A stretch of DNA of 64,000 nt. Source: an uncultured Bacteroidota bacterium. Its GTDB lineage: Bacteria; Bacteroidota; Ignavibacteria; Kryptoniales; JAKASW01. The notes beneath the pieces were generated by a model. That model did no database searches. It worked only from the letters and a program-made list of their open reading frames with translations, and was not told where the DNA came from. The stretch spans positions 706,252-770,251 of the forward strand of contig CAWEES010000002.1 in the NCBI GenBank assembly GCA_963808245.1, in the 5' to 3' direction. Positions 42,672-64,000 of this stretch are shown here, one piece after another (the stretch's first letter is position 1; each line of letters begins with the position of its first letter). The position numbers were made by a program, and so were the translations under genes.

Positions 42672-42796
42672 ATGAGGTCCTACTATTGTTCTTTCATTCT
42701 TGGAATTATTCTCAAAGGAAAGAATAGGCTCTTTTGTTCCTCTTACCTTTTCGCCAGCAGAAAAAATATAGAATCCGATTTCAAGATAAAATCGGT

Positions 42797-42996: not shown

Positions 42997-43305
42997 CTAC
43001 TGTCGGTCTGAACCGTTTTGGAGAATATTGGAAGGAATCGGCCTTTGTCTATATAAAACCTGGACAAACTTCGAATCTTCTTTGGGCTTGAATATTTGGA
43101 TAAGCTCCCAGGATTTGTCGTAATTTGCTAATCCCCCCTGGAGCATTTTTATCCTGTCATCGACCGACCACTCCTCATCTTCTGGCTCCCAACGGAAAGC
43201 CTCCACGCGAAAGTTGTATTGCCTCTTTTTCCCGTTGATCTTTACCTCTATCTCGGCAATTTGTTTGTCCATAAAATCGGGCAATGGAATACTTACATCT
43301 TTCAT
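42997..43305 (-). CDS. Hypothetical cytoplasmic protein, last gene of the ABC permease operon
   Basis: 102 aa. No signal peptide or TM helix. The start lies 23 nt after the stop of the last permease. No family recognised. Confidence 0.55.
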   Translation of the reverse strand: MKDVSIPLPDFMDKQIAEIEVKINGKKRQYNFRVEAFRWEPEDEEWSVDDRIKMLQGGLANYDKSWELIQIFKPKEDSKFVQVLYRQRPIPSNILQNGSDRQ

Positions 43306-43328: not shown

Positions 43329-45779
43329 CTATTCATATCTCAATGATTCGATCGGGTTTGCCGTCGCGGCTTTGATCGCATGATAGATGACCGTCGATAA
43401 TGCAATGAGCAGTGCCGTAACTCCCGAGATTACAAAAACCAGAATGCCGATATTTGTCCTGTATGCAAATTCCTGAAGCCATTTATTCATTGCATAGTAT
43501 GCCAACGGCCAGGCAACGACACTCGCGATGACGACCCATTTCGTAAACTCTTTTGAAAGCATATAAATAATCTCAGCGACTGACGCGCCAAGAACTTTCC
43601 GTATCCCGATCTCTTTGGTTCGCTGTTCTGTTGCAAAAGCTGCCAGCGCGAATAGGCCGAGGCAGGCGATGAATATTGTGAGGATCGAGAACACGAGGAA
43701 GACGTTTCCGAGCCGCATCGCGGGCTCGTATCCTGCCCTGAAATCGTTATCGACGAACGTATATTCGAAAGGCATACCTGGAGCGAAGGCCTCCCATTCG
43801 GATTTCAACATTGAGATCGTTCCCGGAATATCATCGGGGCGGACCCGAACAACGACTAATGAATTCGGAATTGAGTAAGATTTTGATGAGTGGTGGAAAA
43901 GAGCAAAGGGGGTGATAGGCGAATAGAGAGTCATGAAATTGAAATCCTTCACGACCCCGATGACTTTGTATTTCACTCCATTACTTACGTAAGTCACATA
44001 TTCTCCGATCGGATGCGAGAAGCCGAGGTATTTCACCGCTGCCTCGTTCAGGATGATGCTTGCGGAATCCGAATATCCTTTTTCGAATCCCCTTCCATCG
44101 GCAATCTTCAGTCCCATCGTGCGGATGAAATCGTCATCGGTCATGTATGAGAGGAGATCGAATTGTTTTTCCTGTTTTCCCTCTACCTCATATCCATCTT
44201 CGAAACCGTATGACGGCGGTACCCCGGTGGAGATGGAAGCATCGATCACTTGCGGATGAGTTTTCAACATGTCTCGGAAAGCTTCTGCCTGGCTGCCGAG
44301 TCTTTCATTCTCGTTGGAAATAGCTATAACGTTGTTTGCATTGAAGCCGAGATTCATCTGACAGACGAAATCCATTTGCTTTTTCACGAGCAATGTACAG
44401 GTGATGAGTCCGATGGCAATTGTAAACTGCGTGACGACGAGAACATTCCTGAGCAAGATCCTGCGTGACGAGGAGTTCGCCCCACCTTTCATCACGCTTG
44501 CCGGCTGTAATGCGGAGAGATAGAATCCCGGATAACTCCCGGAGGCGATTCCGACCGCTGCGCCAAGAAGGAAGAGTGTTACAGGAAACCACCATGGATA
44601 CAAGAGATTGAACTCCAGCGATTTCCCGGTAAGGTCGTTGAAAAGCGGCATAAACATCTCGACGAGGAAAACCGCGATCGTGAGTGACAGAAGACTGAAG
44701 AGCGTTGACTCGACAAGGAACTGTCCGATGAGTGCCTTCCTTTCGGAGCCCAGCACCTTCCTGACGCTTATTTCCTTAGAGCGGCTTCCGGAGCGGGCCG
44801 TTGTCAGGTTAATGAAATTTATACAGGCGATGAGAAGGATGAGGACGGCGATCACCGACATGAGATACACTTCGGTCATGTCCCCGAGCGGCCCGAGCCG
44901 GTTGCCGGTCAGGGAGGATCCCAGATATATGTCTCTCACCGGCTGAAGCACGAAATGCCAGTGTCCACCGCTTTTGATCATATCATCGTATGAATATCCG
45001 AGGCGCTTGAGCCCGGCGGGAAGATACTCTTTCTCGACTTCGGAAATCTTTGCTTGCACCGCGGAAGCTGGAACACCGTTTCTCAACTGGGCATAAGTGG
45101 CAACTTGCATCCAGACCCAGCTCCAGTCGCGCCATGCGACTTCCGGATAAGATGACATCGAAGTCAGCATGTTGAACTGAATGTGCGAATTATGCGGAGG
45201 GTCCTTCACGATTCCGGTCACCTTGAACAGACTCTGGTAGATTCCGTAGTGATTTTTCTCGTCCTGTCCAATGACCAAGTATTTGCCGACAGGCGATTCG
45301 TCGCCGAAGTACTTTCGTGCTGTCGACTCGGTCAAGACAACACTATTCGGAGCGCTCAATACGGTGGCGGGATTTCCCGATACCATAGGATAAGGGAAAA
45401 GCTCCAGGAAATTCGAGTCCGCCGAGACGATGCCGTCCTCGTCGAAGAACTGATTCCCATTGCGGACGACGGTCCTCAACATCGGACGGACTCGGGTTGC
45501 AGATTCGATCCCGGGAATTTCGTTCATAAGTTTACCGGCAAGAGGCGGCGGTGTACCCGGTCCGACTCCCTCGTTCCCATTCCACTTAAAATCCCAGTTC
45601 ACACGATAAAGCTTATTCACACCGGGAATAAATTTATCGTAGCTCAGCTCATCCTGAACCCAGAACAGGATCAGTATCGCGGAAGCCATTCCGATTGCAA
45701 GTCCAGCAATACTTATAAGCGAGTAGAGTCTGTTCTTGGAAATATTTCTAAGCGCGACCTTGAGGTAATTCTTTATCAT
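43329..45779 (-). CDS. ABC transporter permease, fused double FtsX/MacB-type (paralog 7 in transcription order)
   Basis: 816 aa. N-terminus MIKNYLKVALRNI. Two modules of TM, large periplasmic domain, then 3 TM. Two FtsX signatures (ACINFINLTTARS..., TEQRTKEIGIRKVLGAS). C-terminus AIKAATANPIESLRYE. Confidence 0.9.
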   Translation of the reverse strand: MIKNYLKVALRNISKNRLYSLISIAGLAIGMASAILILFWVQDELSYDKFIPGVNKLYRVNWDFKWNGNEGVGPGTPPPLAGKLMNEIPGIESATRVRPMLRTVVRNGNQFFDEDGIVSADSNFLELFPYPMVSGNPATVLSAPNSVVLTESTARKYFGDESPVGKYLVIGQDEKNHYGIYQSLFKVTGIVKDPPHNSHIQFNMLTSMSSYPEVAWRDWSWVWMQVATYAQLRNGVPASAVQAKISEVEKEYLPAGLKRLGYSYDDMIKSGGHWHFVLQPVRDIYLGSSLTGNRLGPLGDMTEVYLMSVIAVLILLIACINFINLTTARSGSRSKEISVRKVLGSERKALIGQFLVESTLFSLLSLTIAVFLVEMFMPLFNDLTGKSLEFNLLYPWWFPVTLFLLGAAVGIASGSYPGFYLSALQPASVMKGGANSSSRRILLRNVLVVTQFTIAIGLITCTLLVKKQMDFVCQMNLGFNANNVIAISNENERLGSQAEAFRDMLKTHPQVIDASISTGVPPSYGFEDGYEVEGKQEKQFDLLSYMTDDDFIRTMGLKIADGRGFEKGYSDSASIILNEAAVKYLGFSHPIGEYVTYVSNGVKYKVIGVVKDFNFMTLYSPITPFALFHHSSKSYSIPNSLVVVRVRPDDIPGTISMLKSEWEAFAPGMPFEYTFVDNDFRAGYEPAMRLGNVFLVFSILTIFIACLGLFALAAFATEQRTKEIGIRKVLGASVAEIIYMLSKEFTKWVVIASVVAWPLAYYAMNKWLQEFAYRTNIGILVFVISGVTALLIALSTVIYHAIKAATANPIESLRYE

Positions 45780-45799
45780 ATCCTACTTCCTAATAAGTC

Positions 45800-48238
45800 T
45801 TATTCGTATCTTAGCGACTCGATCGGGTTTGCCGTCGCCGCTTTGATTGAAAGCCAGCTCACCGTCAGCAAAGCAATCGTCAGCGCGAGGCCGCCTGACA
45901 GAAGGAAAATGAACAGGCTTATCTGCACGCGATACGCAAACTCACCGAGCCATTTATTCATGACGAAGTAAGCAACAGGCCAAGCAATCACGTTGGCAAG
46001 GAGAACAAGCACCATAAACTCCTTTGAAATCAATCGCAGGACATTCGTTATCGACGCTCCGAGAACTTTCCTTATCCCGATCTCCTTCGTTCTTTGCTCG
46101 ACACTGAACGATGCAAGACCGAATAGCCCAAGACATGCAACCAAAACCGCGATAACCGCGAATATTCCGAAGACATCGCCGATCTTCGCGTCTTTGACAT
46201 AGAGGCTCGCGAGTTGATCATCGAGAAATTTATAGTCAAAAGGATAGCCCGGTCTGTACTCTGCCCACTTCGATTTCAAGAATGCCAGAGTGGATGGGAT
46301 TTCCTTTCCGCTTATTCTCACCGCAACCTGTGTGTTGCCGCCTTGGGTTATCAGGAAAAGAATAGGTACGATCCCGTTATGCAGCGATTCAAAATTGAAG
46401 TCATGGACGACACCGATCACCCTTCCGTTTCTACGGCCGTAAATCATGGGTTTACCGATCGCTTCCTGCGGTGTCCATCCGAGTTGACGGACCGCGGTCT
46501 CATTCAGAATGAAGGCCTCACTGTCATCCGTCGGATGATCTCTCGAGAAGTCTCTCCCGGCAGTGAGAGGTATCTGGTAAGTCTGGAGAAAATCATAATC
46601 GACTTCATCGACTGCTAACCTGAAGTTGATCGGGACTGCATTGTTCCCCTCTACCACCTTGGCTCCCCAGTCGTTCAGGAGCATATTCGAGGGAACCAAC
46701 CTGGATGTCGCGATCATTTTCACTCCCGGATTCTGGAGAAGCTGACTCTTAAACGACTCAAGATTCGCCCGCATTCTCTGATTCGATGGAAGGAGAACGG
46801 TATGGTCTTTATTGTATCCAAGATTCTTATTGTTCACAAACTCCATCTGTTGAAACACGACGCCCATCGCGATAATGAGTCCCACCGAAATCGCGAATTG
46901 AAAAACGACTAGTGCAGTTCTGAATGTAGATTTTCGAGACGAAGTCTGGCCTCCCTTTAAAACTGCGGATGGTCGGAAGGATGAAAGCATCACCGCGGGA
47001 TAAGAGCCCGACAAAAAGCCGACAAGAATTGTTAGCACGATTATTCCGATCAAGAGAATAGGGTCGGACAAAATATCGAAATGCAGATCTCTCTTAGCAA
47101 ATTCGCCAAATGGCTTGATAGCAATCTCGACGATTAGGATCGAGATCACGAGCGAAAAAAGAACCGTGACCATAGATTCACCGATGAATTGCCCCACCAG
47201 CTGTTTCCTGTATGCTCCCATCACTTTTCTGACTCCGATTTCTCTTGCCCTCTTCGCCGATCTTGCCGTCGAAAGGTTCATGAAATTTATGCAGGCAATT
47301 AGAAGGATGAAGAACGCGACCGCCGAAAATATGTAAACATTCTTGATGTCGCCGTTCTCCTCGGCCTCGGTCGTGAGGTGAGAAAGGAGATGAATGTCGG
47401 TCAGTTTCTGAAAATGGAGAATCGTATAATTGTGAATTGCCTTCACCGGCAGAGGCACGAAGTCATTTCTAAAAGCCTCACCTAAGTGCGTATCGATGAA
47501 TCCAGGGATTTTGGCGTCAAGCTGCTTGATCGGAAACTGTTTCGGTAGCAAAAGGAAAGTCAAGTAGTTGTTGCTGCTCCAGCTCTCCTCAAGTTCTTTT
47601 CGCCCAACGATGGAGGAATCATATAGGGTGACGAAGGAGCCAAGAAAATCATAGTGGAAAAAGGAATTCTCCGGAACCTCTTTTATAACCCCGGTTATCT
47701 TCAAGTCTATTTGGTGTTCATATCTTATTGTTTTTCCTATCGGGTCTTCACTCCCGAAATATTTTTGTGCGGCCGATTGCGTAATCACAAGCGTGTTTGG
47801 TTCGTTTAATGCTGTGTTTGGGTCACCTTCAATAAAAGAGATCGTGAATATTTTGAATGCAGAAGGTTCAGCCCAATAAAATTTCTCCTCGATGACGGGA
47901 TTGTTTTTTATTTCAAGAAAAGTGTTATAGTCCTGCATGAATCGAACTTCATCGAGCACAATGTTGGGATAATCGTTCTTCAACATCGGACCGATCGGCG
48001 GAGCGACCCGGGCCAGGTATAAACTGGAAGTGCCATCTTCGTTAAACCACTGACGTGTCACTCTATAGATCCTGTCGGCGTTAGCATTGAACCTGTCGTA
48101 GCTCAATTCATACCTGACGAAAAGCAATATCAAAATGCAACAAGCGATTCCGACAGATAAACCAAAGATATTTATAAAGGAATACCTTGGCTGGCGAAGG
48201 ATATTCTTTAATGCGATTTTGAAATAGTTCTTCAGCAT
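45800..48238 (-). CDS. ABC transporter permease, fused double FtsX/MacB-type (paralog 6)
   Basis: 812 aa. Same architecture. MLKNYFKIALKNI ... SIKAATANPIESLRYE. Confidence 0.9.
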   Translation of the reverse strand: MLKNYFKIALKNILRQPRYSFINIFGLSVGIACCILILLFVRYELSYDRFNANADRIYRVTRQWFNEDGTSSLYLARVAPPIGPMLKNDYPNIVLDEVRFMQDYNTFLEIKNNPVIEEKFYWAEPSAFKIFTISFIEGDPNTALNEPNTLVITQSAAQKYFGSEDPIGKTIRYEHQIDLKITGVIKEVPENSFFHYDFLGSFVTLYDSSIVGRKELEESWSSNNYLTFLLLPKQFPIKQLDAKIPGFIDTHLGEAFRNDFVPLPVKAIHNYTILHFQKLTDIHLLSHLTTEAEENGDIKNVYIFSAVAFFILLIACINFMNLSTARSAKRAREIGVRKVMGAYRKQLVGQFIGESMVTVLFSLVISILIVEIAIKPFGEFAKRDLHFDILSDPILLIGIIVLTILVGFLSGSYPAVMLSSFRPSAVLKGGQTSSRKSTFRTALVVFQFAISVGLIIAMGVVFQQMEFVNNKNLGYNKDHTVLLPSNQRMRANLESFKSQLLQNPGVKMIATSRLVPSNMLLNDWGAKVVEGNNAVPINFRLAVDEVDYDFLQTYQIPLTAGRDFSRDHPTDDSEAFILNETAVRQLGWTPQEAIGKPMIYGRRNGRVIGVVHDFNFESLHNGIVPILFLITQGGNTQVAVRISGKEIPSTLAFLKSKWAEYRPGYPFDYKFLDDQLASLYVKDAKIGDVFGIFAVIAVLVACLGLFGLASFSVEQRTKEIGIRKVLGASITNVLRLISKEFMVLVLLANVIAWPVAYFVMNKWLGEFAYRVQISLFIFLLSGGLALTIALLTVSWLSIKAATANPIESLRYE

Positions 48239-48315
48239 ACCATTCCTCCATTTAATCGCAGACCGGAGACAGCAAACCGGAATCCGGTCTTCGGGCTCCT
48301 GTCCCCATTTTGTTT

Positions 48316-50676
48316 TTATTCATATCTTAACGATTCCACCGGATTTGCCGTCGCGGCTTTGATCGATTGATAACACACTGTAAGAAGGACAATCATTAAA
48401 GCCAACCCTCCCGACAAGACAAACACCCACCAGTTTATTTCAATTCGATAGGCAAAGCCTTGCAGCCATTTGTTCATTGCATAGTAAGCAATTGGCCATG
48501 CTATGATGCTGGATAGCAGAGTCCACAGGACAAAATCTTTTGTGAGCGTTGACACCACGTTAGCAACAGATGCGCCCAGCACTTTTCGGATTCCTATTTC
48601 TTTGGTCCTATTCTCGGAAACAAATGATACCAGCCCAAACAAACCGAGACAGGCGATGAATATTGCCAGGATTGAAAAATATCCAAATATGTTTTCCATT
48701 CTTCCTTCCGATTGATAAAGCTTATCGATCTCTTCATTGAAGAAATGCACGGTGAATTGGTGCTCAGGATATTGTTTATGATAAATCTGTTCCACCATCC
48801 CAATGGTCTTCCCAATATCATTGGATTTTATACGCAGATACAAATGCCGAAATCCGTAGAGAGATAACATTAAGGGCTCAACTTCACCGCGTAGCGACCT
48901 GAAATTAAAATTCTTTACCACCCCGACAATCTTTCCTTCTTTATTCCCGGCGTGTAACCGTTTGCCGATTGGATTCTGCATATGCATAGCTTTTACGGCC
49001 GCTTCATTTACTACAAAAGCCTCCGCCTCGTCGGATGGATACTCCTTTGAGAAGAACCTTCCCTCCGCCATTCTTAACTTAAACGTTTGTGCGAAATCTT
49101 CGGTAACATATAGACTTGGAAAGCTAATCCACTTCGCATTCTTATCCATTCCTTCCCAATCAGGAACGTTATTAGTACCGATATTCAAAAGCATATCTCC
49201 AGAGGCCGCCACACCAATGATCTCCGTATGCTGGAGCAATTCATTTTTTATGGCTTCGTATTTGCCGGCAAAATCTTCCGTCTCCAGATAGACCAGATTT
49301 TCTTTATCAAATCCCAAATCCTTGTTCTTCATATAATGGAGCTGTTGGTATATAATAATCGTCCCGATAATGAGCACCACAGAAATGGTGAACTGGCCAA
49401 TCACGAGTAACCGCCGGAGCAGCGACGAACGGGAACGTACGTCAGCCGGTCCTTTCAAAATCTTAACCGGAGTGAAGGAGGAGAGAAATATTGCAGGATA
49501 ACTTCCTGAAATGATGCCTGTAAAAACTAGGAGACAAATCAAGCCGATAAATATCTCAACGTTTGAAAAGTCAATGGACAACGGTTTACCGGTAAAATTA
49601 TTAAATGCCGGAAGAAATAATTCAACGACAGCCAGGGCGATCACAAAAGCAATGGCGGAAATGAGGATCGATTCTCCAAGGAACTGCTTTATGAGTTGAG
49701 AGCGATTTGCGCCGATGACCTTCCGCAACCCGACTTCTTTGGTACGTTTTATAGAACGCGCAGTTGCCAGGTTCATGAAATTGATGCACGCCATGAACAA
49801 TATGAATGCTGCAATAAGCGTAAAGAAAATCACATACTGAATGCTGCCTTCCTTATTTTCAAACTTGAAATCAGAGTCCAGATGTGCTTTAGTTATCGGC
49901 TGCAGAAAAAACTTTATATGGTTGCTTAATGCCGGGTTATATTTATCCAGAAATGTCTTGAACTCCGCGTTCATTCTTTCGCTCACCGTCGAATAAGAAA
50001 CACCCTTGTTCAGGAGGACGTAAGTTTTATAGTCCGCGTTTGGCTCGTACCAGCTATCGGGGTCCCGCGAAGTCCTGAGGAGTGCGAATGAAAGAAAGCA
50101 ATCAGTTTTCCTGAGGTATTCGTGCGTAAGCCGGGGAATGTCTTTCACAACTCCAGTGACTATGAGTGGACGTGGGTCGTCTGCTTGGGTGATGGTTTTG
50201 CCCATGGCATCTTCCCCGCCAAAGAGTGTTTGTGCAGTACTTTCAGTAATAACTATCGAACCAACATCGTTTAAAGCTGTTTTAGAATCACCCTTTATGA
50301 ATTGGGTTGGGAAAATGTCGAAAAAGCGAGGCTCAATATATCGAGCAGTTGCATCAAGTCCCTTATCCTTATACTGAATCTTTTTACCATCATGGTTCAC
50401 CCTGGTCACCTCCTGGATACCAGGGACAGATTCTTTCAGCCAGTTGGCAAATGGACCGGGCGTTGCAAAGATTTGAGTACCATCCATGTCCCAGATTACA
50501 CGGCAAATACGATCGGCATTTTTATTATAGCGCTCGTAGTTCAATTCATCCTGCACCCATAACATGATAAGGATAAAACATGCCATACCGATCGCAAGTC
50601 CCGCGATATTTATGAACGAATATATTTTATTTCGCGATATGTTTCTTATCGCAATCTTAAAATAATTCTTCAGCAT
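48316..50676 (-). CDS. ABC transporter permease, fused double FtsX/MacB-type (paralog 5)
   Basis: Start moved to the ATG at 50676 (MLKNYFKIAIRNI), preceded by GGAGGGAGGG. 786 aa. Ends SIKAATANPVESLRYE. Confidence 0.9.
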   Translation of the reverse strand: MLKNYFKIAIRNISRNKIYSFINIAGLAIGMACFILIMLWVQDELNYERYNKNADRICRVIWDMDGTQIFATPGPFANWLKESVPGIQEVTRVNHDGKKIQYKDKGLDATARYIEPRFFDIFPTQFIKGDSKTALNDVGSIVITESTAQTLFGGEDAMGKTITQADDPRPLIVTGVVKDIPRLTHEYLRKTDCFLSFALLRTSRDPDSWYEPNADYKTYVLLNKGVSYSTVSERMNAEFKTFLDKYNPALSNHIKFFLQPITKAHLDSDFKFENKEGSIQYVIFFTLIAAFILFMACINFMNLATARSIKRTKEVGLRKVIGANRSQLIKQFLGESILISAIAFVIALAVVELFLPAFNNFTGKPLSIDFSNVEIFIGLICLLVFTGIISGSYPAIFLSSFTPVKILKGPADVRSRSSLLRRLLVIGQFTISVVLIIGTIIIYQQLHYMKNKDLGFDKENLVYLETEDFAGKYEAIKNELLQHTEIIGVAASGDMLLNIGTNNVPDWEGMDKNAKWISFPSLYVTEDFAQTFKLRMAEGRFFSKEYPSDEAEAFVVNEAAVKAMHMQNPIGKRLHAGNKEGKIVGVVKNFNFRSLRGEVEPLMLSLYGFRHLYLRIKSNDIGKTIGMVEQIYHKQYPEHQFTVHFFNEEIDKLYQSEGRMENIFGYFSILAIFIACLGLFGLVSFVSENRTKEIGIRKVLGASVANVVSTLTKDFVLWTLLSSIIAWPIAYYAMNKWLQGFAYRIEINWWVFVLSGGLALMIVLLTVCYQSIKAATANPVESLRYE

Positions 50677-50769
50677 ACCCTCCCTCCAATTTTTCTTCGT
50701 ACAGCGCAAAGGGCAGAACCCATAGCGTACCGATTGGGCTTTGCTCCATGCTCTACGCCCCTCGCGAGT

Positions 50770-53187: not shown

Positions 53188-53242
53188 GTTCCGCTCCATC
53201 TCGTTTCAATTTTCAATGACCATCAATAATTGTTTATTACAT

Positions 53243-55669: not shown

Positions 55670-55773
55670 CTCCTCCTCCACCTCAACTCTGTTTATGATT
55701 CCTTTTTTTTGATGACCATTTGATCATTCATAGTGCAGACTTTCAATCGGGTTTGCCGTCGCGGCTTTGATCG
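55632..55773. repeat. Permease junction repeat, copy a
   Basis: ~142 bp spanning the first ~13 codons of paralog 3, the spacer, and the last ~17 codons of paralog 2. ~90% identical by eye to 58071..58213, including the non-coding spacer. Confidence 0.8.
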
Positions 55774-58108
55774 CCTGAAAACTCATCGTGATAAATGCTA
55801 TAGTCACCGCAACAATACCGGCGGCCACAAACACCAGGACGCCTATGTTTATCCTGTATGCGAATTCCTGAAGCCATCTGCTCATGACAAAGTACGCAAT
55901 CGGCACAGCAACGAGCGAAGCGATTGTGACAAGCCATAGAAAGTCTTTCGCCAGAAGTACAACTATCCCTTTGACCGAAGCGCCGAGCACTTTCCTGATT
56001 CCAATTTCTTTAGTCCTCTGTTCAGCAGTGTATGTTGCCAGACCAAACAGCCCTAAGCAAGCGATGAAGATTGCGAGTGATGAAAAGAAATTGAATATCC
56101 TCTCGGTCCGAATATCGGTCTTGTACATCTCGTCCACAAACTGATCGAGGAACGAATAGTCGAATGGCTCTGTCGGAATAATCCTTTTCCATGTTGCTCC
56201 AATGAAATCTACCGCTTCCCTGGGTTTTCCCGGCTCCAGTCTCACCAGCATGTATTCGACGCGCTGTGGATCAATTCTCATAATCAACGGTCCGATCTTA
56301 TCATGGAGGCTGGCAAAGTTGAAATCTTTGACGACGCCAATAACCGTCCCGACCGGCGTTCCTTCGAACTGTTTTCCAATCGAATTCTTCCAGCCGAATT
56401 TGTGAGCGGCAGTCTCGTTGATTATGACTGCGGATGAATCGGATGCTATATCACGCGAAAAGTCCCTGCCCTGTACAATCTGCATCTGCATTGTCTTGAT
56501 GTAATCGTAATCGATGAAACTCCGTGTCATGTCCATCTGCACCTGGCTGTTCGTGCCGACAACTGTCTCAGTGCCGTCGTTCCCGCTTGCGCCTGTCAAC
56601 CCTGAACCCGCTGCAACATCCATGATGTCAGAATTCTTCAGCAGCTCCGTTTTTAACAGTCCGACTTTTTCGACCGCGTTCTTGCTGTGAAGCGGAATAT
56701 ACAAGACCTGCTGTCTGTTGAAACCAAGACCCATGCTTGCTACATAACTCATTTGACCCGAAACTATTTCCGTACATACGATCAAAGCTATTGCAATAGA
56801 AAATTGCAGCACCACAAGCGTCTTTCTGAAGTTCGCCCTCCTTGTCACAGAAATGGCGAGACCTTTCAAAGATTGGGCGGGTTGAAGACGTGAGAGAAAG
56901 AAAGCAGGATAGCTCCCGGCAACGATGCCGACCAGAATAGCGATCCCGAGCAGTTCAAGAAGAAACGATAAGCTGTCTCTGTATGTAAATATTATTCGCT
57001 CTTCGAAGATGCTCTTGAAATACGGGAATGCCAATTCCGCTAGAAGCAGCGATAGCATGAATGCTAACAGAGAAATGATCACCGACTCGCCGAGGAACTG
57101 GTAAATGAGATTCCGTCTGGTCGAGCCTAAAACCTTTCGCATGCCGATCTCTTTGAGTCTCTTTGTCGACCGCGCAGTTGCAAGATTCATGAAATTGATG
57201 CAGCCGATCAGCAAAATGAAGACCGCGATAATTGAAAAAATGTAGACTGTCGATGTACTACCAAAATTATGATTATAAGCCTGGTACGGAATATCCCCGG
57301 AGTGAAGGTGTATTTCTTTTAATGGTTGGAGAAATATTTGCAGGTGAGTCCACATATCCTTAGGTACAACCTTATCTACAAATCCCGGCAGTCCCTGTTC
57401 AACAGATTCACGAGTTATCCCTTTCTTCAGTAGAACATATGTTGCTAGACCGTTTGACCCCCAGCTGTTCAACCATCTTATGGAGTTCTCCACCGATTTG
57501 TACGACCCGAGAATTTCAAAATAGACATGGGAATTCTGGGGGCAATCTTTCATCACGCCCGTAACCGTGTAATTATTCGGCCCATTACCGTAATCGAGAC
57601 TGACTGTTCTACCTAACGGATCACTCCCTCCGAAGAATTTCTTCGCTACGCTCTGTGTGACCACTAAGGAATATGGTCCGTTCAGCGCCGTCTTCGGATC
57701 TCCTTCGATGAAGGGAAATGTAAAAATATCAAATGTGGAAGGATCCGCAAAGGATACATTTTTCTGATAATAACCGACGTCCCCAATCTTGCAGAATGAC
57801 GATGGGGCGGGCATGATTCTCGCTGAACTTTCTATCTGGGAAAAATACCCATTCAGCGCGGGTGCCAGTGGACCCATCGTGACCGCGACATTCATCTTTC
57901 CGATGCCGGGCTGATCTTGTATCTCGACTGTCCTGTATATTCTGTCTGCCTTCGTGTTGAATGTGTCATAACTCAACTCATTCTTGATGAAAATGGAAAC
58001 AAGAATAAAGCCGCCAAGACCGACAGCAAGCCCGGCAATATTTATGAATGAATATGTCCTATTGCGCACTATGTTTCTCAGCGCAACGCGAAGATAGTTC
58101 TTTATCAT
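55724..58108 (-). CDS. ABC transporter permease, fused double FtsX/MacB-type (paralog 2)
   Basis: 794 aa. MIKNYLRVALRNIV ... AIKAATANPIESLHYE (His variant of the terminal motif). Confidence 0.9.
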   Translation of the reverse strand: MIKNYLRVALRNIVRNRTYSFINIAGLAVGLGGFILVSIFIKNELSYDTFNTKADRIYRTVEIQDQPGIGKMNVAVTMGPLAPALNGYFSQIESSARIMPAPSSFCKIGDVGYYQKNVSFADPSTFDIFTFPFIEGDPKTALNGPYSLVVTQSVAKKFFGGSDPLGRTVSLDYGNGPNNYTVTGVMKDCPQNSHVYFEILGSYKSVENSIRWLNSWGSNGLATYVLLKKGITRESVEQGLPGFVDKVVPKDMWTHLQIFLQPLKEIHLHSGDIPYQAYNHNFGSTSTVYIFSIIAVFILLIGCINFMNLATARSTKRLKEIGMRKVLGSTRRNLIYQFLGESVIISLLAFMLSLLLAELAFPYFKSIFEERIIFTYRDSLSFLLELLGIAILVGIVAGSYPAFFLSRLQPAQSLKGLAISVTRRANFRKTLVVLQFSIAIALIVCTEIVSGQMSYVASMGLGFNRQQVLYIPLHSKNAVEKVGLLKTELLKNSDIMDVAAGSGLTGASGNDGTETVVGTNSQVQMDMTRSFIDYDYIKTMQMQIVQGRDFSRDIASDSSAVIINETAAHKFGWKNSIGKQFEGTPVGTVIGVVKDFNFASLHDKIGPLIMRIDPQRVEYMLVRLEPGKPREAVDFIGATWKRIIPTEPFDYSFLDQFVDEMYKTDIRTERIFNFFSSLAIFIACLGLFGLATYTAEQRTKEIGIRKVLGASVKGIVVLLAKDFLWLVTIASLVAVPIAYFVMSRWLQEFAYRINIGVLVFVAAGIVAVTIAFITMSFQAIKAATANPIESLHYE

Positions 58109-58213
58109 CTCCTCCTCAACCTCATACTCTGTTTATGATTCCGCTTTTTTGATGATCGCTTGGTCATTCATAGTGCAGACTCTCAATCGGGTTTGCCGTC
58201 GCGGCCTTGATAG
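58071..58213. repeat. Permease junction repeat, copy b
   Basis: Same as copy a, at the paralog 2 / paralog 1 junction. Confidence 0.8.
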
Positions 58214-60590
58214 CGTGTGAGCTCACCGTTGCGAGTGCGATTATTAAAGCAAGGACCCCTGAGGCAATGAAAATCCAAATACTCATGTCAGTTGTGTAAG
58301 CAAAATTTTGCATCCATTTGTTCATGACGTAGTAAGCCAGAGGCCACGCGAATAAGTTCGCAAGGAGTACCCACTTCGCGAATTGGGCAGACAAAAGCGA
58401 AATTACTTCGAGCACAGATGCACCCAGAACTTTTCTGATGCCAATCTCCTTTGTCCGTTGTTCCGTTATGAATGCAGCCAATCCCAGGAGGCCGAGAGAT
58501 GCAATGAATATCGCGAGGACAGAAAACGCACCCGCGATCTTGCTGGTCCTCTGATCCGCGATGTAGAGTTTTTGCAGGCTTTCATCGAGAAAGTTGAAAT
58601 CGAATTCTTCGTTCCCCGCATACTTCTTCCAGACCCCCTCGATAGAGGATATCGTGCTCAGATGATTACCCGGCGCGAAGCGAACGGTAACGAACGAGCC
58701 TGGAGAGCCACTCTCCGACTGGAGCCCGATAACAAGCGGTCGAATCGACTCATGAAGCGAGTGATAATTGAAATCTTTCACGACTCCCACCACTTCCAAT
58801 CTTCTCTGATCAGACATCTTCTCACCAGGCAACACGAGATATTTGCCGACTATATTCTTCACTCCGAAAGCCCTCTCAACTTCCTGGTTTACGACGACTG
58901 CTGCTGTATCGGATGGGTGTTCCTTTGAAAAGAATCTCCCCTCTGCCATCTGGAGTTTATATGTTTTTGCAAAATCGAAATCACTTCGCATCGTCTGTAA
59001 GTCTACAAGTTTGTCGACACCTGTTCCTTCGAGCCAGAATCCACTATCACTCCACTGGTTCCCGGGAATAGCACTCGAGTTGGAAACGCTTGTTATGTCT
59101 TTGTCCTCCTTCAATTCATGTATGAAGGACTGTAACTGGCCCGCTAATTCATCTGCTCGATAAATTACTACACTTTCTTCCTTGTCAAATCCCATATCTC
59201 TCGTCTGCACGTACTTAAGCTGATTATATATCACCAGGGTACCGATAAACAGAGCTATCGAAATCGCGAACTGGAAAACCACAAGGCCGTTCCTCAAGAA
59301 CGACTCTCTTCCACCTTTCCTTCTCTCCGACTTCAGCACGTCGATCGGACGGAAAGAGGAGAGGTAGAAAGCCGGATAACTTCCTGCAACAACTCCAACA
59401 ACGACCGCCAATCCGACAAGGATTGGAATCGATAATGGATTAGCGAAAAGATCAAGACTTAATTTCTTATTCGCGGTATCATTGAACAGAGGAAGGAGAA
59501 GCTCCACGATCCCGACGGCGAGTATTACGGCCGCAACGCTCATCAAGATTGATTCTGCTATAAATTGCCAGATAAGATGTGACCGCGGCGATCCAAGAGT
59601 TTTCCTTATTCCGACTTCCTTAGCGCGCTTCTGTGATCTGGCCGTTGCAAGGTTGACGAAGTTAATACAGGCAATCAACAATATCGCAATCGCAATTGCC
59701 GAGAAAACATAGACAGTCGAGATATTGCCGTTCTGTTCCAGCTCATAATCGAGATGCGAGTTGAGATGAATTGACGTGAGGGGCTGAAGCACGTATCCGA
59801 CCTTGTTGCCTGCCGCCAGGAATTGCTCTATCGATACGCCGGTAACGGCCTTCAGTTGCGGCCCGGCATGAGCGACGAGTTCCTCATTGAGCTTGCGTCC
59901 AAAGTCTGCCAGATCGGTTCCTTTCTTCAAAAGAAAATAAGTGTAATAATTATTGCTCAGCCAGTTTGGATTCCGGCTGTCTTCAACAGAAGTGAGCGAA
60001 GCGATAAAGTCAGGATGAAAATGCGAGTTCCGAGGAACATCCTTTATTACTCCCGTGATCATATAGTCGGTTCTCTTATCAACATTAAGAATTTTGCCAA
60101 GCGGATTTTCATCACCAAAGTACTTGCGCGCCGTTGACGCAGTGACCACCATCGTGTTTGGCTGATCAAGAGCAGTCTCGGGATTGCCCGCAATGAAAGG
60201 TAAAGTGAAGACGTCGAACAGGGTCGAGTCCGCCCAAAAAAATCCAGGCTCAACAAATGTTTTATTCTGGTATCTGATCGCAAATGGGCCTTCGTAATGC
60301 AACCGGGCATACGCGACCACTTCCGGTAAATCATGATAAATCGTGGCTCCCATGGGTGCCGGGCTCATCGCAGATTTAACATCGTGGCCATTGAACGTCG
60401 CAGAGATTGTTGGCCTGTAAATCTGATCAGCGTATTTATTGTATTTGTCGTAACTCAACTCATCCTGGACAAAAAGCATAATCGCGATGCAGCAAGCGAT
60501 GCCCACCGACAAGCCGGTAATATTTATGAACGAATAGACTTTGTAATTCTTGAGATTTCTAAATGCAACTCTTAAGTAATTCTTAATCAT
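58164..60590 (-). CDS. ABC transporter permease, fused double FtsX/MacB-type (paralog 1)
   Basis: 808 aa. MIKNYLRVAFRNL ... AIKAATANPIESLHYE. Confidence 0.9.
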   Translation of the reverse strand: MIKNYLRVAFRNLKNYKVYSFINITGLSVGIACCIAIMLFVQDELSYDKYNKYADQIYRPTISATFNGHDVKSAMSPAPMGATIYHDLPEVVAYARLHYEGPFAIRYQNKTFVEPGFFWADSTLFDVFTLPFIAGNPETALDQPNTMVVTASTARKYFGDENPLGKILNVDKRTDYMITGVIKDVPRNSHFHPDFIASLTSVEDSRNPNWLSNNYYTYFLLKKGTDLADFGRKLNEELVAHAGPQLKAVTGVSIEQFLAAGNKVGYVLQPLTSIHLNSHLDYELEQNGNISTVYVFSAIAIAILLIACINFVNLATARSQKRAKEVGIRKTLGSPRSHLIWQFIAESILMSVAAVILAVGIVELLLPLFNDTANKKLSLDLFANPLSIPILVGLAVVVGVVAGSYPAFYLSSFRPIDVLKSERRKGGRESFLRNGLVVFQFAISIALFIGTLVIYNQLKYVQTRDMGFDKEESVVIYRADELAGQLQSFIHELKEDKDITSVSNSSAIPGNQWSDSGFWLEGTGVDKLVDLQTMRSDFDFAKTYKLQMAEGRFFSKEHPSDTAAVVVNQEVERAFGVKNIVGKYLVLPGEKMSDQRRLEVVGVVKDFNYHSLHESIRPLVIGLQSESGSPGSFVTVRFAPGNHLSTISSIEGVWKKYAGNEEFDFNFLDESLQKLYIADQRTSKIAGAFSVLAIFIASLGLLGLAAFITEQRTKEIGIRKVLGASVLEVISLLSAQFAKWVLLANLFAWPLAYYVMNKWMQNFAYTTDMSIWIFIASGVLALIIALATVSSHAIKAATANPIESLHYE

Positions 60591-60678
60591 ACGGTTCTCC
60601 TTTTCAACGGCACAGCCCTAAGCGCGTTGCCCATACTATGCGGGTTTCCCCGCTTTGCTCGATGCCCTCTGTACTGTG

Positions 60679-61341
60679 TCACTTTTCGATCCATCCATCT
60701 TTCAATCTTATTATCCTATTTCCATACGCGGCATTCGTTTCGGAATGCGTAACCTGAATTATCGTTGTCCCTTGCTTATTCAATTCTTTCAGCAAATCCA
60801 TTATTGCCTTTCCCTGATCCGAATGAAGATTGCCGGTAGGTTCATCAGCAAGTATCAGTTTAGGCTCAGCAATGACCGCCCTGGCGATTGCCGCAAGCTG
60901 CTGCTGCCCACCGGAAAGCTGGTTAGGGAACAGATCTTTCTTCGCGACCATGTTAAATCTGTCGAGAGTTTCCGCGACTCTTCCCTTCCGTTCGTTAGCA
61001 TTTACTTTCTGGTAAAGAAGCGGCGTCTCAAGGTTCTCATAAACCGTCAGTTCGTCGATGAGATGATAGCTCTGAAAGACAAACCCGATATAAGTTTTGT
61101 GAAGCTCGGTCAATTTCTTCTCGTTCATTTTATGAACCGGCTCATTAAGGAAGTAATATTCGCCATTCGATGGCGCATCCAGCATCCCGATCATATTCAA
61201 CAGAGTCGTTTTCCCTGAACCGGACGGCCCCATGATGGAGATGAACTCACCTTGCTTAACTTCAAGGTTAATATTCCTGAGAACATAGGTTTTGATGACC
61301 TTGTTGGAGTAGTATTTCTCGATATTAGTCAACTTAATCAT
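60679..61341 (-). CDS. ABC transporter ATP-binding protein (MacB/LolD-type), variant D-loop
   Basis: 220 aa. Walker [11 protein letters not shown]-loop FQS, signature LSGGQQQ, Walker [14 protein letters not shown] (His where the D-loop Asp normally sits), H-loop VTHS. Confidence 0.92.
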
Positions 61342-61368
61342 TTTCTCTCCGGTTATGATGCAAAGCGC

Positions 61369-62058
61369 CTAAACGTGGAATTTCTCTTTATAATTTTCCG
61401 TCACGACGTGTCCGTCGAACAAGTGTATGATCCGATGCGCGAACTCGGAATCATGCGGCGAGTGGGTCACCATGATAATCGTGGTGCCACCTTCATTCAG
61501 TTGCGTCATAATGTTCATGACCTCTTCGCCATTTGCGGAGTCTAGGTTTCCTGTTGGCTCATCGGCGAGGATCAACGCTGGTTTCGCGACGACTGCCCGA
61601 CTGACAGCGACGCGCTGCTGCTGACCACCCGACAATTGTTGTGGGAAGTGATCTCTGCGGTGCATTATCTGCATTCGTTCAAGTACTTCACCAACCATCT
61701 TTTTCCTTTCCGTAGCCGAAACTCCGAGATAAAGCAGCGGCAATTCGACATTCTCGAACACAGTTAATTCGTCTATCAAATTGAAACTCTGGAAAACAAA
61801 ACCGATATTTGCCTTCCGAATGTTGGCGCGCTGCCTCTCAGTGTATTTCGAAACTTCTTCACCGAGAAAGTAATACTGCCCATCCGAGGGATTGTCAAGC
61901 ATGCCGATCAAGTTCAGCAACGTGGATTTCCCGCAGCCGGATGGACCCATTATCGCGACAAATTCTTTCTCTTTGATCTCGATGTTTACATTGTCCAGAG
62001 CAGTAGTTTCGACTTCTTCCGTGGTGTAAAGTTTTTTTAGGTTATTCGTCTTTATCAT
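61369..62058 (-). CDS. ABC transporter ATP-binding protein (MacB/LolD-type), canonical
   Basis: 229 aa. [33 protein letters not shown]. Confidence 0.92.
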   Translation of the reverse strand: MIKTNNLKKLYTTEEVETTALDNVNIEIKEKEFVAIMGPSGCGKSTLLNLIGMLDNPSDGQYYFLGEEVSKYTERQRANIRKANIGFVFQSFNLIDELTVFENVELPLLYLGVSATERKKMVGEVLERMQIMHRRDHFPQQLSGGQQQRVAVSRAVVAKPALILADEPTGNLDSANGEEVMNIMTQLNEGGTTIIMVTHSPHDSEFAHRIIHLFDGHVVTENYKEKFHV

Positions 62059-62076
62059 GGTTTCTCCTTTTGGCTA

Positions 62077-62102
62077 TCAGCTTTCAGCGGTCAGCATTCA
62101 GC
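62077..62102. repeat. Heptad array (TCAGCNN)x4 at the 3' edge of the four-helix-bundle cassette
   Basis: TCAGC at 62077, 62084, 62091 and 62098 (exact 7-nt period). Overlaps the last codons and stop of the CDS. Confidence 0.85.
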
Positions 62103-62443
62103 TTTTTAATTAAAGATGTGAGCATTTTCTTAACTTCAACTACTTTGTTTGAAAGATCATCATAGACATCATTACTGAGATACTTCAGGTCTTTTGCAAG
62201 CAACACCTGATATTCTAATTCACTTGACGAACCCATCGCGATTTGTGAAAACCTCGACAACTCCGCATCACTTCCCCTGCCACAACCTTCGGCAATATTC
62301 GATGGAGTAGAAATCGCTGCCCGCCTCATTTGATTTGTCAGTCCAAACATTTCCTCTTTTGGAAACGACTGCGTGTTCTTGTAAACACCCAACACAGCTT
62401 GATGAGCCTTGTTCCATACATCTAAGTTTCTAAAATCTTTCAC
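62084..62443 (-). CDS. Four-helix-bundle protein (23S rRNA intervening-sequence protein family)
   Basis: 119 aa. FRNLDVWNKAHQAVLGVYKNTQSFPKEEMFGLTNQMRRAAISTPSNIAEGCGRGSDAELSRFSQIAMGSSSELEYQVLLA matches the family consensus closely. Confidence 0.9.
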   Translation of the reverse strand: MKDFRNLDVWNKAHQAVLGVYKNTQSFPKEEMFGLTNQMRRAAISTPSNIAEGCGRGSDAELSRFSQIAMGSSSELEYQVLLAKDLKYLSNDVYDDLSNKVVEVKKMLTSLIKKLNADR

Positions 62444-62477
62444 TTAATAATCCTCCTTTAAAATTTCTGAGCCGACT

Positions 62478-62498
62478 GCTGATTGCTGAGTGCTGACA
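62478..62498. repeat. Heptad array (GCTGANN)x3 at the 5' edge of the four-helix-bundle cassette
   Basis: GCTGA at 62478, 62485 and 62492 (7-nt period). Inverted relative to the 62077-62102 array. Lies between the adaptor stop and the cassette start. Confidence 0.85.
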
Positions 62499-62499
62499 G

Positions 62500-63750
62500 C
62501 TATTTTATCACTAGTTCGTTTACGTCTCCAAAATTGTCGTACGATGAAGTGACGACTTTGTCTCCGGGCTTCAGTCCATTGAGAACTTCGAAGTAATCAG
62601 GATTTTGTCGACCAAGGCTGATGCTTTTCTTAGTCGCGATATTTCCCCCGTTATTGAGCAGGAACACCCACTGCCCACCCGTTTTCTGGTAAAATCCTCC
62701 TCGCGGCAGGAGGAGTGCTTTTGTTCTTTCACTCAATTGCAATCTTATCTGAAGCGTCTGACCTCTTCTGATTCCGTCAGGGACTTTACCGTCAAATTCC
62801 ATATCGACCTGAAACTTTCCGCTGGTAACTTCCGAATAGACCTTTGTCACTAATAGACTGTAGGTCTTCCCGTCAATATCTACCGATGCATGGAGTCCTC
62901 TAGCCACACGCGCAATGTAGAACTCGTCAATATCTGCTCTCACTTTAAACCCATCCAATGCATCTATCTGCCCGATTTGGTCACCGGGGTTTTTCGCCTG
63001 TCCCGTTTCTGCATTCAATGAAGTGAGCTGGCCATTTATTGGCGCCTTGATCGTGAGGTTATCGATATTCTCTCTTATCAGTTCCAGATTTTTTTGCAAC
63101 CGCTCAATCGAAGCCGCAATCTGCGTTAATTGAGTCAGCTTCAGGATTGAATCTGCCACGAAACTTTGGTAAGCCAATTTCTTTTGCTCGAGAGCGAGAT
63201 GATAGTTATTTTCCGCCTGTTCATAATCCTGCTGTGAAATCAAATTCTTCTCTCTCAGCGCTTTCTGACGATCGAAGATTTCTTTGGAATTGATGAGACC
63301 ATAGTTGGCAGATACAAGTGCGTTTTGGAGAGCGTTGCTGTTTTGCTCAATCTGTAATCTCGTATTCCTCGCGTCGTTAATCTGCTGGTATGCGAACGTT
63401 TCCTGCTGGAGTGTACTTAGCTGAACATTGGTATTGGATAGTTGTAGAATCTTGTCGCCTTTCTTGAGCATTGCACCTTCATCAACGAATTTCTTCTCAA
63501 CAGTGCCGCCTAGGATTGCATCGAGATAAAAAGTCGTGAGCGGCAGAACGGTTCCGGTTACCGGGATGAATTCCTGGAAGTCACCTTCTGCCACGGTTGA
63601 TATTGTAATTTTATCGGCTTCGACATTCAGTTTTGCACCGGTATCAGAAATAATTAAGATGACGAGGAACAAAAACATCGCGCCACCCCCGGCATAAGCC
63701 CAAAAACGACCTCGTTTGTAAAACACTTTTTTTTCAATTCTCTTATCCAA
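62500..63750 (-). CDS. Efflux transporter periplasmic adaptor (HlyD/MFP family)
   Basis: 416 aa. N-terminal TM anchor, long coiled-coil hairpin region, lipoyl/beta-barrel motifs (ISTVAEGDFQEFIPVTGTV, IKAPINGQLTSLN). The track start is a TTG; the next in-frame Met is residue 25. Confidence 0.88.
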   Translation of the reverse strand: MDKRIEKKVFYKRGRFWAYAGGGAMFLFLVILIISDTGAKLNVEADKITISTVAEGDFQEFIPVTGTVLPLTTFYLDAILGGTVEKKFVDEGAMLKKGDKILQLSNTNVQLSTLQQETFAYQQINDARNTRLQIEQNSNALQNALVSANYGLINSKEIFDRQKALREKNLISQQDYEQAENNYHLALEQKKLAYQSFVADSILKLTQLTQIAASIERLQKNLELIRENIDNLTIKAPINGQLTSLNAETGQAKNPGDQIGQIDALDGFKVRADIDEFYIARVARGLHASVDIDGKTYSLLVTKVYSEVTSGKFQVDMEFDGKVPDGIRRGQTLQIRLQLSERTKALLLPRGGFYQKTGGQWVFLLNNGGNIATKKSISLGRQNPDYFEVLNGLKPGDKVVTSSYDNFGDVNELVIK

Positions 63751-63910
63751 TGGTTTTCCTTTGAGTCATCTTGTTAATTTCGATGTAGAATAATCTCTCA
63801 CGACTAAGATTGTGCAATCGGTGTGCCCCGTCTCTCAACCCGGGATTAGTTTTGAATATGATTTTTCAAATCAAATTTGCTTATTTGCGTTTTTATTGCA
63901 AAGTTTAAGT

Positions 63911-63944
63911 GTCCGATAACGGACGGTTGTGTTCGGAAACGGAC
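63911..63944. promoter_or_regulatory. Two tandem palindromic operator-like sites upstream of the ABC operon
   Basis: GTCCGATAACGGAC (63911-63924; GTCCG-N4-CGGAC, perfect) and GTTCGGAAACGGAC (63931-63944; one mismatch). They are spaced 20 nt start to start, 160-195 nt upstream of the adaptor start. Confidence 0.35.
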
Positions 63945-64000
63945 GACAACTAAAGAAATGAGATGGAAAGCTTATCGCCTTCGAGTATTTCAAAGGAATG

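Follow-up and report, generated by a model that had tools for sequence, protein, structure and literature searches.

A tandem array of seven duplicated MacB-type permeases behind one adaptor and an A/B ATPase pair: a candidate modular Type VII ABC system in an uncultured Bacteroidota bacterium

Sequence comparison and structural modelling of a 64,000-nucleotide stretch of contig CAWEES010000002.1 from an uncultured Bacteroidota bacterium (the whole stretch is hereafter the window) suggest that it encodes a modular ATP-binding cassette (ABC) system of Type VII, in which one inducible operon would supply a pair of dissimilar ATPases (type A and type B), one periplasmic adaptor and seven alternative permeases that set specificity, a reading we favour with modest confidence. 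All long open reading frames (ORFs) between positions 42,997 and 63,750 lie on the minus strand and encode, in order of transcription, the adaptor, a four-helix-bundle protein, two ABC ATPases (ATPa and ATPb), seven permeases (P1 to P7) and a protein of 102 amino acids (aa), orf102 (Table 1). This inventory and its single direction had been described in an initial annotation made from the letters alone, and every element was found as it stated, including the 20-93 nucleotide (nt) spacers between the permeases, each of which ends in a GGAGG-type Shine-Dalgarno ribosome-binding site. All seven permease ORFs are intact and carry a full Pfam domain set; three of them, listed from upstream GTG, TTG or ATG codons, were trimmed to internal M[IL]KNY methionines as the likelier starts. 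The block is likely co-transcribed as one operon. Within the favoured reading the sharing of the ATPases is the firm part, while service of all seven permeases by the one adaptor, and an efflux route through a channel in the outer membrane, are less secure; that the ATPases and the adaptor are physically shared, that transport is outward and what is transported are points we infer.

The argument for a shared motor comes from gene counts and from permease architecture. A pattern scan covering one genome per species found at least 595 stretches that encode relatives, of which we analysed the best 80 (at most 22 kb each, many cut by contig ends; individual loci carry the prefix L), drawn from Ignavibacteria, many Bacteroidota families, KSB1, Aminicenantes, Rhodothermales and Marinimicrobia. 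These 80 loci (1.36 Mb) hold 280 full-length permeases as against about 26 ATPase genes and 17 adaptors, and the ATPase genes near the arrays are all of type A or type B, none of them standing between permeases. Because each permease needs two nucleotide-binding domains (NBDs), such numbers mean that ATPase sharing must, to judge from gene content, be the rule in this permease family, and they are the strongest point in favour of the initial proposal. The initial annotation had proposed one motor and one adaptor for seven permeases, and the counts and architecture support the first part of that proposal, whereas service of all seven by the adaptor is less certain. Where an adaptor is present the order adaptor-ATPase(-ATPase)-permease(n) recurs in about 13 of the 17 loci (L012, L026, L042 and L057 differ), and the median spacer between permeases in related loci is 59 nt.

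A comparison of array length across genomes, suggested at the outset, gave at least two tight tandem full-length copies in 52 of the 80 loci, at least four in 30 and at least seven in 5 (maximum counted 9), so that tandem runs in related loci extend to at least 9. In Psychroflexus torquis a 42-kb, highly expressed cluster with about 10 ADOP paralogs, other transporter genes and a TesA-like thioesterase has already been described (PMC3914696), 28-33 copies of ADOP-type permeases are reported from Dyadobacter (PMC11573002), and one acidobacterial metagenome-assembled genome (MAG) has 102 copies, 80 of them transcribed (PMC10564751). The array thus typifies a class of gene cluster that is widespread and has been noted before, and the window adds to it one further case but no new function. 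Arrays of this sort abound in Bacteroidota, Ignavibacteria and Kryptonia and are neither unusual nor unreported. The remark of the initial annotation that they lack a functional description agrees with our literature search, which returned descriptive reports only and no paper giving such arrays a function.

In Pfam each permease is matched twice by MacB_PCD and twice by FtsX (E 1e-24 to 1e-38), its N- and C-terminal halves align with each other at 25-33% identity, and the averaged hydropathy profile of the permeases has eight hydrophobic segments. An AlphaFold2 model of P7 (54 sequences; predicted local distance difference test, pLDDT, 83; predicted template modelling score, pTM, 0.77) contains 8 transmembrane (TM) helices (4+4) and two periplasmic domains. 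The chain begins with an N-terminal amphipathic helix, TM1, periplasmic domain 1 and TM2-4, the TM2-TM3 loop bearing a short helix; after a short cytoplasmic linker come TM5, periplasmic domain 2 and TM6-8, with a second loop helix, and a short C-terminal helix ends the chain. As modelled, each permease is a direct 4+4 fusion and a complete pseudo-dimeric membrane unit, in agreement with the fused pseudo-dimer of the initial annotation; the arrangement typical of Type VII (MacB-superfamily) proteins, in which a large extracytoplasmic domain separates TM1 from TM2 of a 4-TM FtsX module, is present twice. When the P7 model was compared with the PDB by Foldseek, YbbP came first and matched over its full length (E 1e-19, TM-score 0.45, 13-14% identity), followed by MacB (1e-13), LolE of LolCDE (5e-10) and BceB of BceAB (1e-9); the Porphyromonas gingivalis permease domain 3is6 was also matched (TM-score 0.8 on the target). 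In Escherichia coli two YbbA NBDs serve each YbbP permease, which works with the periplasmic esterase TesA (PMC12646458), and the earlier suggestion that one permease polypeptide would need two nucleotide-binding subunits thus finds support in its best full-length structural match.

The two ATPases are 56% identical, and in both the Walker A motif, Walker B with its catalytic Glu, the signature and the H-loop are intact. Type A is recognised by an LSGGQQQRV signature, an NLD D-loop and a C-terminal VTENYKEKFHV tail, and type B by an LSGGQQQL[AV]A signature, an NLH or NLN D-loop and the lack of the tail. When aligned with the neighbours of other arrays the two types are conserved, the peculiarities of type B being kept in L005, L008 and L044, and both recur in Ignavibacteria-type and Bacteroidota loci (in the latter, type B was assigned by phmmer best match and not by motifs). 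Type B adjoins type A in the window, L005 and L008, and in L031, L044, L047 and L079 it lies at the far end of the array, which is then bracketed by its two NBD genes. Considering these sequences, it is most likely that A and B form a heterodimeric motor matched to the asymmetric pseudo-dimeric permease. Both ATPases match the MacB-NBD, LolD, FtsE, DevA and YbbA models of NCBIfam (E 1e-51 to 1e-66), with DarD as the top match; for ATPa the best matches are DarD, MacB-NBD, FtsE and LolD.

We found that the seven permeases are 33-44% identical in pairwise comparison, with the single exception of P1 and P3 at 71%. Their near-invariant ends, noted at the outset, are real in all seven (start M[IL]KNY[LF][RK][VI]A, end AIKAATANP[IV]ESL[RH]YE), although these termini and the conserved loops belong to the whole permease family and are not specific to the array. 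Mean pairwise identity among the six non-recent paralogs, calculated per element of the structural model, is 91% in the C-terminal tail, 73% and 56% in the second and first cytoplasmic loops, 63% in the N-terminal helix and 38-56% in the TM helices. In MacB the NBD is contacted by an amphipathic N-terminal helix, the TM2-TM3 major coupling helix and a C-terminal minor coupling helix (PMC5985334), and because the same elements are concerned, the best-kept permease surfaces are those that would face the ATPases. The periplasmic domains (PCDs) have the lowest identity of all elements (PCD1 31%, PCD2 29%), within them blocks of 40-54% identity alternating with blocks of 4-18%, so that the initial impression by eye of highly diverged periplasmic domains is borne out by per-domain alignment.

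The paralogs are of great age and have orthologs in other genomes, P1 and P3 forming a younger pair. P2 and P4-P7 are each nearer to a permease in another genome's array than to their own-array paralogs, the best relatives across genomes (in L005, L006, L008, L033, L069 and L071) being 53-65% identical, or 47% for P5. Individually the nearest matches are L006 for P1 (59%), L008 and L006 for P2 (61%), L069, L005 and L011 for P4 (55-56%), L033 for P5 and L005 for P6 (65%), and the L005 array keeps the order P3-like, P4-like, P6-like. Among the 120 homologs of P7 listed, 118 are at least 50% identical, mostly full-length, and the matches listed come from Ignavibacteria, KSB1, Saprospiraceae and Rhodothermia. 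The ratio of PCD to TM identity is mostly 0.73-1.11 in cross-genome ortholog pairs (0.64 for P5 and its 47% match), as against 0.58 ± 0.06 between the window paralogs, and because of this difference we regard the periplasmic domains, on present alignments, as constrained within a subfamily and differing between subfamilies, which fits distinct periplasmic specificities. A dN/dS analysis by domain, also suggested at the outset, could be run on P1/P3 and gave higher dN in the PCDs (0.22-0.26 vs 0.11-0.16 in the TM regions), but the ratio itself is unusable owing to saturated synonymous sites (pS about 0.8; range 0.70-1.07) even in this closest pair.

These data also bear on whether the array is simply a product of recent amplification, made of redundant or decaying copies without functional differentiation. 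Tandem arrangement and the younger P1/P3 pair would fit such an origin, which we nonetheless find scarcely credible: seven ORFs are intact with full domain sets, the paralogs are 33-44% identical with closer orthologs in other genomes, and even P1 and P3 have saturated synonymous sites and a dN of 0.11-0.26. By these sequence criteria the paralogs are old, and recent amplification or decay is excluded as their explanation.

Comparison with known systems places the locus near several families. The top NCBIfam match of the permeases is the ADOP family (TIGR03434; E 1e-86 to 1e-91, full-length or nearly so), with which they share a polypeptide of about 800 aa with two MacB_PCD and two FtsX domains, large paralogous families, multi-copy clusters and a lack of assigned function. 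However, P1, P4 and P7 score 290-306 bits against a curated cutoff of 622.3, and because of these scores the window permeases are set apart from core ADOP, as what their sequences would make a sister group from FCB lineages and not a core-family member. The ADOP family is moreover defined as "orphan", without an adjacent ABC ATPase gene, whereas in the window two ATPase genes stand immediately upstream of P1, as they do in at least 15 related loci, and the adaptor precedes them.

The second-best NCBIfam match of the permeases is DarB, and the darobactin exporter DarBCD likewise combines a duplicated permease (DarB, whose 777 positions are all covered by the match) with an adaptor, DarC, and a separate ATPase, DarD. 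The adaptor of the window matches DarC over its full length (E 9e-60, below cutoff), scores 143 bits with RND_mfp TIGR01730 (above the cutoff of 94.9) and matches MacA weakly (1e-13). With DarC and DarD as best NCBIfam matches of adaptor and ATPases, and with B12-binding and radical SAM ORFs downstream at 41050-42671, one might suppose that the operon exports, or confers immunity to, a peptide made by the ribosome and modified after translation (RiPP), the downstream B12-binding radical SAM enzyme taking part in the system. We consider this very improbable, as all Dar scores are far below curated cutoffs (DarB 108-161 vs 700, DarC 203 vs 450, DarD 270-280 vs 375), DarBCD has one permease and not seven, neighbours of the darA or DarE type are lacking, the only radical SAM nearby being of the B12-binding type (a precursor peptide was not searched for), and the gene is apparently frameshifted, lies behind a 325-nt gap with a terminator-like hairpin and was not seen where the genes downstream of related arrays were examined (L005, L084-L086 and L089). 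An operon link to the radical SAM gene or to a RiPP was accordingly ruled out, the gene being neither conserved in place nor contiguous with the operon. From its sequences the locus is related to the ADOP and Dar families and is a curated member of neither.

MacAB-TolC resembles the system in its MacB-type 4-TM module, its Porter/Sabre-type periplasmic domains, its MacB-type NBDs and the MacA-like adaptor in the operon, but MacB is a homodimer of 4-TM permeases that each carry an NBD at the N-terminus, whereas here the NBDs are encoded separately, the permease is an internally duplicated single chain and seven permeases accompany one adaptor. YbbAP-TesA (PDB 9GE6/9GE7/9GE8; PMC12646458) is alike in its single-chain duplicated permease with two periplasmic domains and in its separate NBDs in a 2:1 ratio; it differs in that YbbA is a homodimer where we find two ATPase types, in having one permease gene and not seven, and in the 10 TM helices, including two linker helices, that YbbP shares with BceB (PMC5985334; PMC12646458), as against 8 here by hydropathy and the AlphaFold2 model.

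This likeness nevertheless raises the alternative that the permeases act as do YbbAP-TesA or FtsEX-EnvC, extracting hydrophobic compounds from the inner membrane or activating or feeding periplasmic enzymes, with the adaptor serving only one or a few of them. Besides the structural rank of YbbP and its partnership with TesA, in favour are the TesA-like thioesterase of the P. torquis cluster and the genes that other arrays carry between their permeases (L005 17376-21503, L089 2786-5839, L008 12345-13028, L034 12556-13260), which encode likely exported products, among them a PQQ/BamB-like beta-propeller, alpha/beta hydrolases, an S9 peptidase and DUF1080-like and DUF2807 proteins; thus alpha/beta hydrolases and an S9/esterase-type protein are interspersed in the L005 array, and in L089 a 1017-aa S9 peptidase with a signal peptide directly follows the P7 ortholog. 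The window operon, however, has its adaptor first, the usual position in adaptor-bearing loci, and contains no TesA-like or other hydrolase gene. The modules are also nearer to MacB than to YbbP by sequence, since in a profile search the closest solved chains were 3is6 and MacB (5lil, 5gko, 5nik) and YbbP was not detected at E<0.01, and the number of TM helices differs. We regard this alternative, the foremost of those considered, as unlikely.

The operon is probably driven by sigma-54. A pattern search placed a candidate sigma-54-type -24/-12 promoter upstream of the adaptor (Table 1), and although such matches occur at chance level across the window, so that the argument for the candidate rests on its position, an identical motif is found in L001-L003, and in L005, L009 and L044 the adaptor is likewise preceded by a site of similar sequence. 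A divergent sigma-54-dependent response regulator and histidine kinase lie just past the window end, on contigs with the same ATPase (L001-L003), and likewise in L005 and L008. Because no such promoter was found in the Bacteroidota-type loci, the regulatory proposal, drawn from sequence motifs, is limited to Kryptonia/Ignavibacteria-type operons together with L009 and L044. Upstream of the candidate promoter, at 63890-63945 (minus strand), two similar elements, GTCCGTTTCCGAACAC and GTCCGTTATCGGACAC, were noticed by eye, the second of them palindromic; the neighbouring sigma-54 activator could bind to them.

Scans for sigma-70 promoter-like sites (33 vs 29 in shuffled sequences, no enrichment) and for terminator-like sites (23 vs 19 in shuffles, 0 in the spacers between permeases) are weak tests. 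They are nevertheless relevant to the possibility that the genes are only loosely co-located, such that the promoter-proximal permease or permeases alone use the local ATPases and adaptor and the rest are independently expressed and powered by ATPases encoded elsewhere, a scheme that has been proposed for the acidobacterial "orphan" ADOPs. We think this rather improbable. The definition of ADOP by its lack of an adjacent ATPase, the orphan permease without transporter neighbours in L087 and the long arrays without a visible ATPase in L004, L017, L029, L032 and L058 speak for it; against it stand the short spacers with ribosome-binding sites and without terminator-like hairpins, the fact that all ATPases near arrays are of type A or B, and the bracketing of arrays by A and B in several genomes.

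We therefore return to one operon with a shared motor. In the mechanism we propose, the operon, probably sigma-54-driven and encoding a Type VII (MacB-superfamily) system of the ADOP-like "duplicated permease" family, would be switched on as a set by the neighbouring histidine kinase and sigma-54 response regulator. The A/B heterodimer would engage any one of the permeases through that permease's conserved N-terminal helix, both its coupling loops and its C-terminal tail, and as many as seven alternative 1:1:1 complexes (permease:ATPa:ATPb) would form in the cell. The periplasmic domains, diverged from one another yet each conserved in itself, would choose the periplasmic or outer-leaflet substrate, or the partner, on which a complex acts by mechanotransmission, and at least some of the complexes would work under the single MacA/DarC-like adaptor with an outer-membrane channel encoded elsewhere.

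Several observations weigh against this mechanism or parts of it. In some operons only type A is within reach (e.g. L027, L036 and L049), and a homodimeric motor is possible. The NBD-facing motifs are conserved family-wide, so that they give no specific sign of co-adaptation within the operon, and the excess divergence of the periplasmic domains between paralogs could in part be an effect of saturation. Likely exported hydrolases interspersed in other arrays hint at partners besides the adaptor, and, as our scope is the 64-kb window, further ATPases or adaptors may possibly lie elsewhere in the source genome. No OEP/TolC domain occurs among the ORFs tested across the window; a channel gene may lie elsewhere, as tolC does in E. 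coli.

The small protein at the end of the operon shows a specific association with the permease genes. It belongs to a family of 196 homologs, of which the 120 listed are 66-90% identical and about 90-100 aa long, none with a Pfam domain; they are labelled hypothetical and come from Candidatus Kryptonia/Kryptoniota (closest) and Bacteroidota MAGs. Orf102 is far better conserved than the permeases, and in every context inspected (the window, L005, L044, L069 and L084-L089) it adjoins or sits within duplicated-permease arrays, including a place beside the lone orphan permease of L087; in L063 there is a phmmer match only. Pairing with one fixed permease subfamily was ruled out, as the upstream permease varies between genomes. 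The protein lacks a signal peptide, and its AlphaFold2 model (pLDDT 75), a four-stranded sheet with one helix, has no significant match in the PDB. The view of orf102 that fits best is that of an uncharacterised accessory protein of the permease family, located in the cytoplasm.

Extending the shared-motor reading, we can at present only suggest, as a possibility we hold to be appreciable but short of even, that the adaptor and the A/B pair are a common engine for many exchangeable permeases, whether these belong to the array or are orphans elsewhere in the genome, with the PCDs setting specificity and orf102 as an unrecognised cytoplasmic accessory, which would be an assembly or regulatory factor. 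For group II ECF transporters, with their exchangeable S components, and for the multitask ATPases MsiK and MsmK, it is proposed that several substrate-specific membrane components share one energising module; those are importers of unrelated fold classes, and by analogy the common engine would be an exporter or mechanotransducer counterpart of the group II ECF transporters. We know of no Type VII (MacB-type) system for which ATPase sharing has been shown.

The value of the locus is that it offers a large family of unknown function a testable architecture, and does not lie in any peculiarity of its own. In soil and sediment bacteria few unexplained paralog families are larger than that of the duplicated MacB-type permeases, for which a protein search listed more than 7,800 close homologs, and to our knowledge a role has been proposed for none of its members but E. 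coli YbbP and DarB. Together with its relatives the locus gives a clear architecture, namely n permeases accompanied by a two-component switch, an adaptor, an A/B pair of ATPases and a conserved small partner. Should the common engine be true, it would account for the energy supply of the hundreds of "orphan" ADOP-type permeases known from Acidobacteria and Bacteroidota. One motor for many permeases would also introduce modularity into Type VII ABC systems as a principle, with a bearing on how these phyla tolerate antibiotics and xenobiotics.

Table 1. Features of the permease operon and its flanks, in order of transcription (window coordinates)
Feature	Position	Strand	Description
Candidate sigma-54-type -24/-12 promoter	63813-63828	minus	GGGCAC-N5-TTGCA; ~63 nt upstream of adaptor ORF; pattern search
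Membrane-fusion (periplasmic adaptor) protein	62500-63750	minus	416 aa, N-terminal membrane anchor; Pfam HlyD_3 + HlyD_D23
5' heptad-repeat array	62467-62500	minus	nnnTCAG x ~5; flanks four-helix-bundle gene
Four-helix-bundle protein	62084-62443	minus	119 aa; PF05635, TIGR02436
3' heptad-repeat array	62070-62101	minus	GCTGAnn x ~4; inverted complement of 5' array
ATPa, ABC ATPase type A	61369-62058	minus	229 aa; PF00005
ATPb, ABC ATPase type B	60679-61341	minus	220 aa; Pfam ABC_tran
Permease P1	58164-60590	minus	808 aa; 2x MacB_PCD + 2x FtsX
Permease P2	55724-58108	minus	794 aa; 2x MacB_PCD + 2x FtsX
Permease P3	53243-55669	minus	808 aa from internal ATG; 2x MacB_PCD + 2x FtsX
Permease P4	50770-53187	minus	805 aa; 2x MacB_PCD + 2x FtsX
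Permease P5	48316-50676	minus	786 aa; 2x MacB_PCD + 2x FtsX
Permease P6	45800-48238	minus	812 aa; 2x MacB_PCD + 2x FtsX
Permease P7	43329-45779	minus	816 aa; 2x MacB_PCD + 2x FtsX
orf102	42997-43305	minus	102 aa; conserved small protein, no Pfam match
Terminator-like hairpin, candidate operon end	42775-42795	minus	~200 nt downstream of orf102; consensus scan, overall matches at chance level

The four-helix-bundle gene, which the initial annotation had listed as a cassette within the block, is indeed present but is an insertion, which the homologous operons L005, L008 and L034 lack. Its product matches PF05635 (E 1e-38, 132 bits vs a cutoff of 33.8) and TIGR02436, the 23S rRNA intervening sequence (IVS) protein (131 bits vs a cutoff of 24), and has a PHROG match to Avd. 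The heptads that flank it (CTGTCAG CACTCAG CAATCAG CAGTCGG on the 5' side and GCTGAAT GCTGACC GCTGAAA GCTGATA on the 3' side) follow a pattern found nowhere else in the window (4 matches vs 0.29 expected), and in the predicted RNA fold the two arrays pair around the ORF, forming an interrupted stem some 26 bp long (minimum free energy z = -2.7). Positions 62070-62500 (minus strand) thus look like an IVS-like cassette inserted in the spacer between adaptor and ATPase; that the stem is cleaved by RNase III is speculation.

Some of the spacers resemble one another. Those between P1 and P2 (58109-58163) and between P2 and P3 (55670-55723; both minus strand) are about 85% identical and have in common a 30-nt core, TCATCAAAAAAnnGGAATCATAAACAGAGT, that occurs in the window at these two places only and in 0 of 90 fetched loci; no stable RNA structure is predicted for either. 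Because the synonymous sites of the flanking P1 and P3 are saturated, these two spacers would seem to be either constrained or recently converted. The ATPb-P1 spacer (60591-60678, 88 nt) in turn resembles the P4-P5 spacer (50677-50769, 93 nt; both minus strand), the common motif being AGAGCAT.GAGCAAAGC ... TATGGG ... GCTGT. Both fold as GC-rich hairpins with energies no better than those of shuffled sequences, and across the longer spacers predicted hairpins were likewise no better than shuffles (z -0.45 to -0.9).

Downstream of the operon, the B12-binding ORF (42156-42671) and the radical SAM ORF (41050-42273; both minus strand) overlap by 118 nt in different frames, and 41050-42671 has the look of a single gene for a B12-dependent radical SAM enzyme that a frameshift has broken in two, whether as a pseudogene or through an error of assembly. 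Every sizeable gene identified across the window lies on the minus strand, the others encoding KaiC-like, DnaJ/GrpE and Nramp proteins, two P-type ATPases, a phosphoketolase, an acetate kinase and an ice-binding-like protein with a type IX secretion system (T9SS) sorting tail.

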